From the NCBI RefSeq assembly GCF_050320075.1, contig NZ_CP190018.1: 64,000 bases of DNA; one strand, written 5' to 3'. Position 1 is the first letter of the stretch. Each line of letters begins with the position of its first letter. Below are positions 61,090 through 61,795 of the stretch, in pieces. The position numbers and the translations under genes are program-made. Below the pieces are notes generated by a model, which worked only from the letters and a program-made list of their open reading frames with translations, ran no database searches and was not told the origin of the DNA. The DNA comes from Escherichia coli. Lineage in GTDB: Bacteria; Pseudomonadota; Gammaproteobacteria; Enterobacterales; Enterobacteriaceae.

Positions 61090-61795
61090 ACAGAAAACCC
61101 CCAGCTAGGCTGGGGGTTCCGGAAAGCTTTCAGCTTTGAGCCAGTTATTCAAACCCCTTTTGATTTGTTAAAACACCTTGCGGTCTGGCAACTGCAAGTG
61201 TCAAACAAGAAATCAAAAGGGGGTCCCAATGGGGGACGAAAAGAGCTTAGCGCACACCCGCTGGAACTGTAAATATCACATAGTTTTTGCGCCGAAATAC
61301 CGAAGACTGGCGTTTTACGGAGAGAAGCGTAGGGCGATAGGCAGTATTTTGAGAAAGCTGTGTGAGTGGAAAAGCGTACGGATTCTGGAAGCAGAGTGCC
61401 GCGCAGATCATATCCATATGCTTGTGGAAATCCCACCCAAAATGAGCGTATCCGGCTTTATGGGATATCTGAAAGGGAAAAGCAGTCTGATGCTTTACGA
61501 GCAGTTTGGGGATTTGAAATTCAAATACAGAAACAGGGAGTTCTGGTGCCGAGGGTACTATGTCGATACGGTGGGTAAGAACACGGCGAAGATACAGGAC
61601 TACATAAAGCACCAGCTTGAAGAGGATAAAATGGGGGAGCAGTTATCGATTCCATATCCGGGCAGCCCGTTTACGGGCCGTAAGTAACGAAGTTGAATGC
61701 AAATGTCAGATCGTATGCGCCTGTTAGGGCGCGGCTGGTAACAGAGCCTTACAGGCGCATTTGAAAAACCTCCGGCTATGCCGGAGGATATTTAT
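61090..61795 (+). mobile_element. IS200 (approximate boundaries)
   Basis: Terminal hairpins (ACCCCCAGCTAGGCTGGGGGT at left; GCGCCTGT ... ACAGGCGCA at right) flanking an IS200-type tnpA. Confidence 0.6.
61229..61687 (+). CDS. tnpA: IS200/IS605-family transposase TnpA (HUH)
   Basis: MGDEKSLAHTRWNCKYHIVFAPKYRR... with HIHML (HUH) motif; 152 aa. Confidence 0.85.
   Translation: MGDEKSLAHTRWNCKYHIVFAPKYRRLAFYGEKRRAIGSILRKLCEWKSVRILEAECRADHIHMLVEIPPKMSVSGFMGYLKGKSSLMLYEQFGDLKFKYRNREFWCRGYYVDTVGKNTAKIQDYIKHQLEEDKMGEQLSIPYPGSPFTGRK

Follow-up and report, generated by a model that had tools for sequence, protein, structure and literature searches.

An IS200-type insertion sequence directly behind the araE terminator and upstream of ygeA in Escherichia coli

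The araE-ygeA locus described here lies near one end of a 64-kb window, the window being the whole stretch of E. coli DNA that was analysed. The open reading frame (ORF) listing for window positions 60700-62300 gave, in order along the + strand, the end of araE, its terminator, an ORF of 152 aa and ygeA, with lysR convergent on the - strand (Table 1). The araE terminator identified by the terminator scan comprises a 12-bp stem with eight G-C pairs, a 3-nt loop and a T6 tail, and its sequence does not differ from that of the K-12 empty site, where the gap between araE and ygeA is 128 nt. The racemase function of YgeA is described in a passage of PMC12838360 that cites Miyamoto 2017 and 2022. 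The entire window is identical to positions 1052605-1116604 of E. coli YZLc1-3 (NZ_CP123240.1), in which the 152-aa ORF carries the RefSeq label IS200/IS605 family transposase.

Alignment with K-12 placed the boundaries of the inserted block. The K-12 empty site reads ...CATCCGGCCC TTTTTT CGTTAATAG, and the window reads ...GGCCC TTTTTT, followed by the element (GTGCACAGAAAACCCCC...CCGGAGGATATTTATT) and then CGTTAATAG. Removal of positions 61086-61796 from the window restores the K-12 site CCCTTTTTTCGTTAAT exactly, without any target duplication. As the sequence is T-rich on both sides, the boundary is uncertain by approximately 1 nt; the ends at 61086 and 61796 are nevertheless supported by IS200C copies at unrelated loci, which align with block positions 1-711 from end to end at ∼96% identity, and by tandem IS1541 copies in Yersinia pestis, at whose junction ...ATATTTATT is followed directly by GTGCCCAG (the right end is also given as ...GGATATTTATT). 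Direct reading of the element termini, GTGCACAG... and ...ATATTTATT, showed that they are not inverted copies of each other and that terminal inverted repeats are absent.

Table 1. Features of the araE-ygeA locus carrying the insertion (window coordinates).
Feature	Position	Strand	Evidence and remarks
araE, arabinose-proton symporter, upstream gene	59628..61046	+	472-aa ORF; Pfam Sugar_tr/MFS E=1e-136; RefSeq araE
araE intrinsic terminator	61053..61085	+	hairpin 61053-61079 and T6 61080-61085; insertion target, element directly 3'
IS200-type insertion sequence, 711 bp, close relative of IS200C	61086..61796	+	block missing from K-12 (alignment)
Left-end subterminal hairpin, 10-bp stem, 3-nt loop, 10 nt from end	61096..61118	+	RNA fold; start of STnc490 match
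Structured left end and tnpA 5'UTR, Rfam RF01405 STnc490	61096..61219	+	cmscan 143.9 bits against a gathering score of 56, E=4e-31, model positions 1-124 complete
5'UTR stem-loop, 3' arm covering the tnpA Shine-Dalgarno sequence AAAGGGG	61154..61222	+	RNA fold
tnpA, Y1 (HUH) single-strand DNA transposase, 152 aa, intact	61229..61687	+	Pfam PF01797 Y1_Tnp 'Transposase IS200 like'
Right end: imperfect hairpin 61715-61760, perfect 8-bp hairpin 61769-61787, then ATATTTATT to the cleavage point	61715..61796	+	DNA fold
Native ygeA upstream region, 89 bp, kept	61797..61885	+	1 nt different from K-12 (alignment)
ygeA, broad-specificity amino acid / homoserine racemase, intact	61886..62578	+	230-aa ORF; Pfam Asp_Glu_race E=7e-42; RefSeq ygeA

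The 711-bp element contains a single ORF with a protein-family match, tnpA, and lacks tnpB. TnpA matched the Pfam Y1_Tnp profile with an E-value of 7.9e-37 over profile positions 2-121 of 121, and carries both the HUH motif (HIH, residues 61-63) and a catalytic-type tyrosine, Tyr125, within the stretch IQDYIKHQ. Both ends are strongly structured, with fold z-scores of -4.4 for the left 175 nt as RNA and -4.7 for the right end as DNA, and 0/200 shuffles folded as well. The right-end hairpin at 61769-61787 lies 9 nt from the end of the element and was scored as terminator-like on both strands by the terminator scan, while the feet of the hairpins are A-rich (GAAAAC at the left end, GAAAAAC at the right). 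Taken together, this copy is intact and competent as far as its sequence can show; no second IS200 copy was found inside the 64-kb window.

An earlier note on this DNA had reported a complete IS200-type tnpA with terminal hairpins between the araE terminator and ygeA, at a position where K-12 has no insertion. The Y1_Tnp match, the STnc490 match and the folds bear out the first of these claims, and the empty-site alignment bears out the position and the absence from K-12. The coordinates that it gave, 61090-61795, do fall on the element but are 4 nt short at the left end and 1 nt short at the right, and its distance of about 200 bp before ygeA holds only when counted from the tnpA stop codon (198 nt), since the element itself ends 89 bp from the ygeA ATG at 61886.

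The Rfam STnc490 model matches the tnpA-sense strand; in the literature, STnc490/art200 is an antisense RNA encoded opposite the tnpA 5'UTR region (PMC4513863). The match was therefore read as conservation of the structured leader, and does not indicate which strand is expressed. The sole other Rfam match at E<=1, to ncS037 over the araE terminator, scored 23.9 bits against a gathering score of 112 and was discarded as a chance hit. We also considered the ORF at 61778-62578, whose start codon falls in the right-end hairpin loop and which continues in the ygeA frame, as an N-terminal extension of YgeA created by the element. This reading was rejected: the ORF is without a Shine-Dalgarno sequence, its ATG lies inside a hairpin and the RefSeq protein is 230 aa long.

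IS200 is among the best-known small insertion sequences, and the element in the window is of a known and ordinary kind, already annotated in RefSeq. Every feature of the IS200 group (IS200/IS605 family) that can be assessed at the DNA level is recognisable in it: a Y1 HUH transposase, hairpins at the ends, no duplication, an oriented target, a length of ∼0.7 kb and a structured leader. IS200C of strain EC958 has the same 711-bp length, the same ends and the same hairpins, and shares 95.9% DNA identity with the window element (29 substitutions). It likewise lies directly behind a T-run, with GGCGGGCTTTTTT followed immediately by GTGCACAG. The two transposases are identical at 147/152 residues, the five changes being D3N, L27Q, A28V, G31R and R58C, and PGAP names the IS200C protein 'IS200/IS605-like element IS200C family transposase', whereas the window protein is called just 'IS200/IS605 family transposase'.

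The IS200 of Salmonella enterica, at 707 bp, has a left hairpin at nt 12-34 and a stem-loop at nt 69-138 (PMC4513863), and both structures occur at the same offsets in the window element, although the host here is E. coli. The Salmonella element has the art200/STnc490 and 5'tnpA RNAs, and the window element gives a full-length match to the STnc490 model. IS1541 of Y. pestis and Y. pseudotuberculosis also shares the architecture, the preference for a hairpin plus T-run target and an identical left-end hairpin sequence, but it is only 86.9% identical to the window element in DNA sequence, and Yersinia carries it in far more copies. An exact match to the 20-nt left-end hairpin of IS200 was additionally seen in MAGs assigned to Mailhella, Desulfovibrio, Bacillota, Peptococcaceae, Oxalobacter, Saccharibacteria and Elusimicrobiaceae, mostly at contig ends and in every case behind a hairpin and T-run. 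Either the element has been transferred very widely or some of these bins are contaminated.

A single-strand transposition mechanism has been established for IS608 and ISDra2 (PMC2806898). Like the window element, these have a Y1 HUH transposase and subterminal hairpins ∼10 nt from the cleavage points, lack terminal inverted repeats and target duplication, are oriented 3' of a short target and have their top strand on the lagging-strand template. The target is TTAC or TTGAT for IS608 and ISDra2, but a T-run, usually behind a hairpin, for the IS200 group. The IS200 group is also without tnpB, unlike IS608 and ISDra2, and guide-target pairing is attributed to IS200 by analogy only. A domesticated RAYT (TnpA-REP), that is, an immobile single-copy Y1 gene flanked by REP/BIME sequences, was excluded because the 711-bp unit is multi-copy and its presence at the araE-ygeA site varies between genomes. 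Carriers of the window variant each have 8-17 matching places, and the 711-bp unit has matches in 2641/5426 complete genomes.

Occupancy of the site was assessed by searching 5426 complete E. coli genomes with a 1601-bp query spanning the insertion. The site was occupied in 136 of them (2.5%), with the remainder matching the flanks only, so that the same insertion is not a feature of most E. coli. A separate query consisting of the flanks alone, run at an E-value cutoff too strict for anything but a contiguous match, recovered a contiguous empty site in 5276/5426 genomes. Approximately 127 carriers are essentially identical to the window and share its flank haplotype, while the nearest empty site is only 99.3% identical to the window flanks; the insertion is therefore considered fixed in its haplotype, and no excision revertants were detected among the complete E. 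coli genomes. Published reports assign the carriers 28Eco12, 266917_2 and NMBU_W05E18 to ST38, and one of the three also to phylogroup D (PMC6963479, PMC7311804); the other carriers of the window haplotype are presumably ST38 or close relatives, given their shared haplotype. The description of the insertion as strain-specific in the earlier note needs to be refined for an insertion that is fixed in the flank haplotype of ∼127 genomes and has an IS200C equivalent in nine others.

These nine genomes were retrieved with a chimeric query in which IS200C had been placed at the site between K-12 flanks. They belong to other backgrounds (SCU-313, UID2309220041, B19374, GmM077, three SC477-like genomes, Z1323HEC0423 and Z1323HEC0067) and carry IS200C, not the variant of the window, at the araE-ygeA site in the same orientation. 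In the six that were aligned, the IS200C copy differs from the window element at 31-37/711 positions, and the flanks fall into at least three haplotypes, none of which is that of the window. A different variant of the element within different flank haplotypes indicates that the site has been hit more than once. As judged from these alignments, the araE-ygeA site is occupied at least twice independently in E. coli, and has probably been hit four times. In SC477 and Z1323HEC0423 the annotation of the IS200C copy at this site records a frameshift, which means that decay has already set in for some of the independent insertions at the araE terminator.

It could be argued that there was just one ancient hit, which spread by homologous recombination of the flanks and was later altered by gene conversion from other IS200 copies, in which case the terminator would not be a recurrent target. 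Among themselves, the IS200C copies at the site vary at only 1-12/711 positions, which is less than the variation in some of their flanks, and the left flank of the window is near those of GmM077, SC477 and Z1323HEC0423 (5-6 differences). Against this, the 31-37 differences between the window element and the IS200C copies are spread over the whole length of the element, at least four flank haplotypes occur among the occupied genomes while the vast majority of genomes are empty, and a general preference for a hairpin plus T-run predicts repeated hits at good terminators. We therefore regard a single hit as improbable and favour repeated insertion. The T-runs at the junctions also vary among assemblies (left + right: 6+0, 6+1, 5+3, 5+2 and 5+1), and these differences could be sequencing noise under a single hit. 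Because homopolymer sequencing errors are likely, the T counts were not used to separate events, and the exact insertion points within the T-run are uncertain.

Whether the position behind the araE terminator is typical of the element was addressed with a scan for the left-end hairpin in one genome per species, which yielded at least 120 loci and represents a sample rather than a census. Among the matches listed, nearly every copy is immediately preceded by a G+C-rich hairpin and a T-run, and 98/118 unique left-end flanks (83%) have a strictly defined hairpin and T-run ending at the element, and most of the 20/118 flanks that fail this definition have imperfect hairpins. Only 53/5000 random positions (1%) in the same loci satisfy the strict definition, and the position behind the araE terminator is therefore the normal target of the element. 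The 118 flanks listed come from Yersinia, Vibrio, Brenneria, Dickeya, Edwardsiella, Pluralibacter and several MAGs. The consensus TTTnTT always lies 5' of the left end in these 118 unique insertions among the matches listed, and at the araE-ygeA site all seven copies examined (the window and six IS200C) are likewise oriented 3' of the T-run. The right end of the element, with its hairpin and ATATTTATT, itself resembles a target, and tandem copies insert straight behind such ends. A preprint (10.1101/2025.07.22.666184) has reported an excess of terminator-like sequences immediately upstream of insertion sequences, with the strongest signal for IS200/IS605, so the pattern is not new in general terms.

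Such an association could also arise by selection only, if TnpA needed no more than a short T-rich motif and copies landing elsewhere were harmful and purged. The known requirement of IS608 and ISDra2 for a target of just 4-5 nt, without a hairpin (PMC2806898), fits this possibility, as does the interpretation in the preprint (10.1101/2025.07.22.666184) that upstream terminators limit transposase expression and thereby aid persistence. However, in the Y. pestis loci only 40/322 unoccupied non-ORF runs of T>=5 (12%) follow a hairpin, compared with 83% of occupied sites, which indicates that the hairpin is enriched beyond the effect of the T-run. Moreover, Y. pestis tolerates many insertion sequences that disrupt genes, and in tandems one copy follows the terminator-like right end of its neighbour without a gap. 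On balance, selection as the only cause seems rather unlikely to us.

The GC skew of the + strand is positive across the whole window, and the top strand of the element is therefore on the lagging-strand template. A bias towards the lagging-strand template is known for the IS200/IS605 family. The 'peel-and-paste' single-strand mechanism of this family would have placed the element immediately 3' of the araE terminator T-tract. In this process, TnpA bound to the subterminal hairpins may pair the A-rich foot bases with the T-run, by analogy with IS608 and TTAC. The pairing target would be the single-stranded lagging-strand template, and the terminator hairpin would aid either recognition of the target or tolerance of the insertion. 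Overall, the evidence is very probably best explained by an intact IS200-group copy, of an IS200C isoform, that was set behind the araE terminator by the single-strand mechanism.

Neither the araE terminator nor the 89 bp in front of ygeA is disrupted by the insertion, and the question is then what the added 711 bp could mean for ygeA. A passage of PMC8341724, citing Stringer 2014, describes ygeA as '50% cotranscribed with araE' and arabinose-induced, with a 7-fold response in Salmonella RNA-seq. PMC4513863 describes the left-end hairpin of IS200 as a rho-independent terminator that works in both directions and stops transcription entering the element, and notes that IS200 first came to light through a polar insertion. 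The added 711 bp would bring in this left-end terminator hairpin, a largely untranslated tnpA leader whose ribosome-binding site would be sequestered, and a terminator-like right-end hairpin with a T-rich tail. Given the reported partial co-transcription of ygeA with araE, the element hairpins should insulate ygeA from arabinose induction, while any basal promoter within the retained 89 bp would stay intact. The proposal in the earlier note that the terminal hairpins may influence ygeA expression is plausible. A simple scan found no sigma-70-like promoter on the + strand between the element and ygeA, or directed out of the right end, and an outward promoter within the element is therefore not proposed here.

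That araE read-through is blocked, and ygeA thereby uncoupled from AraC/arabinose control, appears to us an evenly balanced proposition. The main rival is that the element is a neutral passenger with no measurable effect on ygeA, either because transcription of the gene starts mainly from a promoter of its own within the 89 bp or because araE read-through has little physiological importance. The untouched upstream region and intact ygeA are consistent with such neutrality, as are the fixation of the insertion in a lineage that is successful worldwide and in which ygeA shows no decay, and the general view of IS200 as dormant and silent (PMC4513863). The reported co-transcription and arabinose response of ygeA, the lack of a + strand sigma-70-like promoter between element and gene in the scan, and the polarity of IS200 insertions, with their terminating left-end hairpin, all argue the other way. 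We consider neutrality a serious possibility that falls somewhat short of an even chance. If uncoupling does occur, the loss of ygeA from the AraC/arabinose regulon would amount to a minor, lineage-defining change in the wiring of a conserved read-through operon. A broader and more tentative proposal, which we think rather doubtful as a whole, is that IS200-group transposases recognise intrinsic terminators, as single-stranded DNA with a hairpin and T-run, as mimics of their own right end, that strong terminators such as that of araE are thus recurrent hot spots, and that in the ST38-type lineage ygeA has left the AraC/arabinose regulon through the fixed insertion.

What this analysis adds is the 2.5% frequency of the insertion, its link to an ST38-type haplotype alongside independent hits elsewhere, and an explanation of its position by a terminator-type target. 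Presence or absence of the insertion cleanly marks one E. coli flank haplotype, which includes the pandemic ST38 clone. The insertion also supplies numbers showing that IS200-type elements land behind intrinsic terminators, with one terminator hit repeatedly, and may offer a simple case of an insertion sequence separating ygeA from araE read-through transcription.

The window contains several other features of note. After a tRNA-Gly(CCC) (12857-12928) comes a ∼19-kb island (window 12857-32080) that encodes an integrase, AntA/BRO proteins, an Icd-like protein, a DUF927 primase-like protein, SSB and ProQ/FinO, and that resembles a P4-like satellite. Three large hypothetical ORFs within the island, at ∼23.05-30.4 kb, could be defence cargo. 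The island is common to few genomes only, at 99-100% identity, and at least 80% of window 12900-37800 is covered in only 1/5426 complete genomes. The neighbouring region (32080-46200) has a low G+C content (0.35-0.42) and contains a second integrase together with a major-capsid-protein gene, many small hypothetical ORFs, a recombinase and an IS1B at ∼45.5-46.2 kb. Strain 144, which has the same araE::IS200 haplotype, carries ETT2 type III secretion genes (sctC, sctN, sctV-like and others) beside the tRNA-Gly (locus L130, positions 26895-46208). In the window, positions 46210-56000 hold just the distal ETT2 remnant, comprising a LuxR-type regulator, ygeH, ygeG and yqeK-yqeH. The boundary of this remnant adjoins the IS1B, which suggests that the ETT2 apparatus genes were lost from the window strain through an IS1-associated deletion or replacement.
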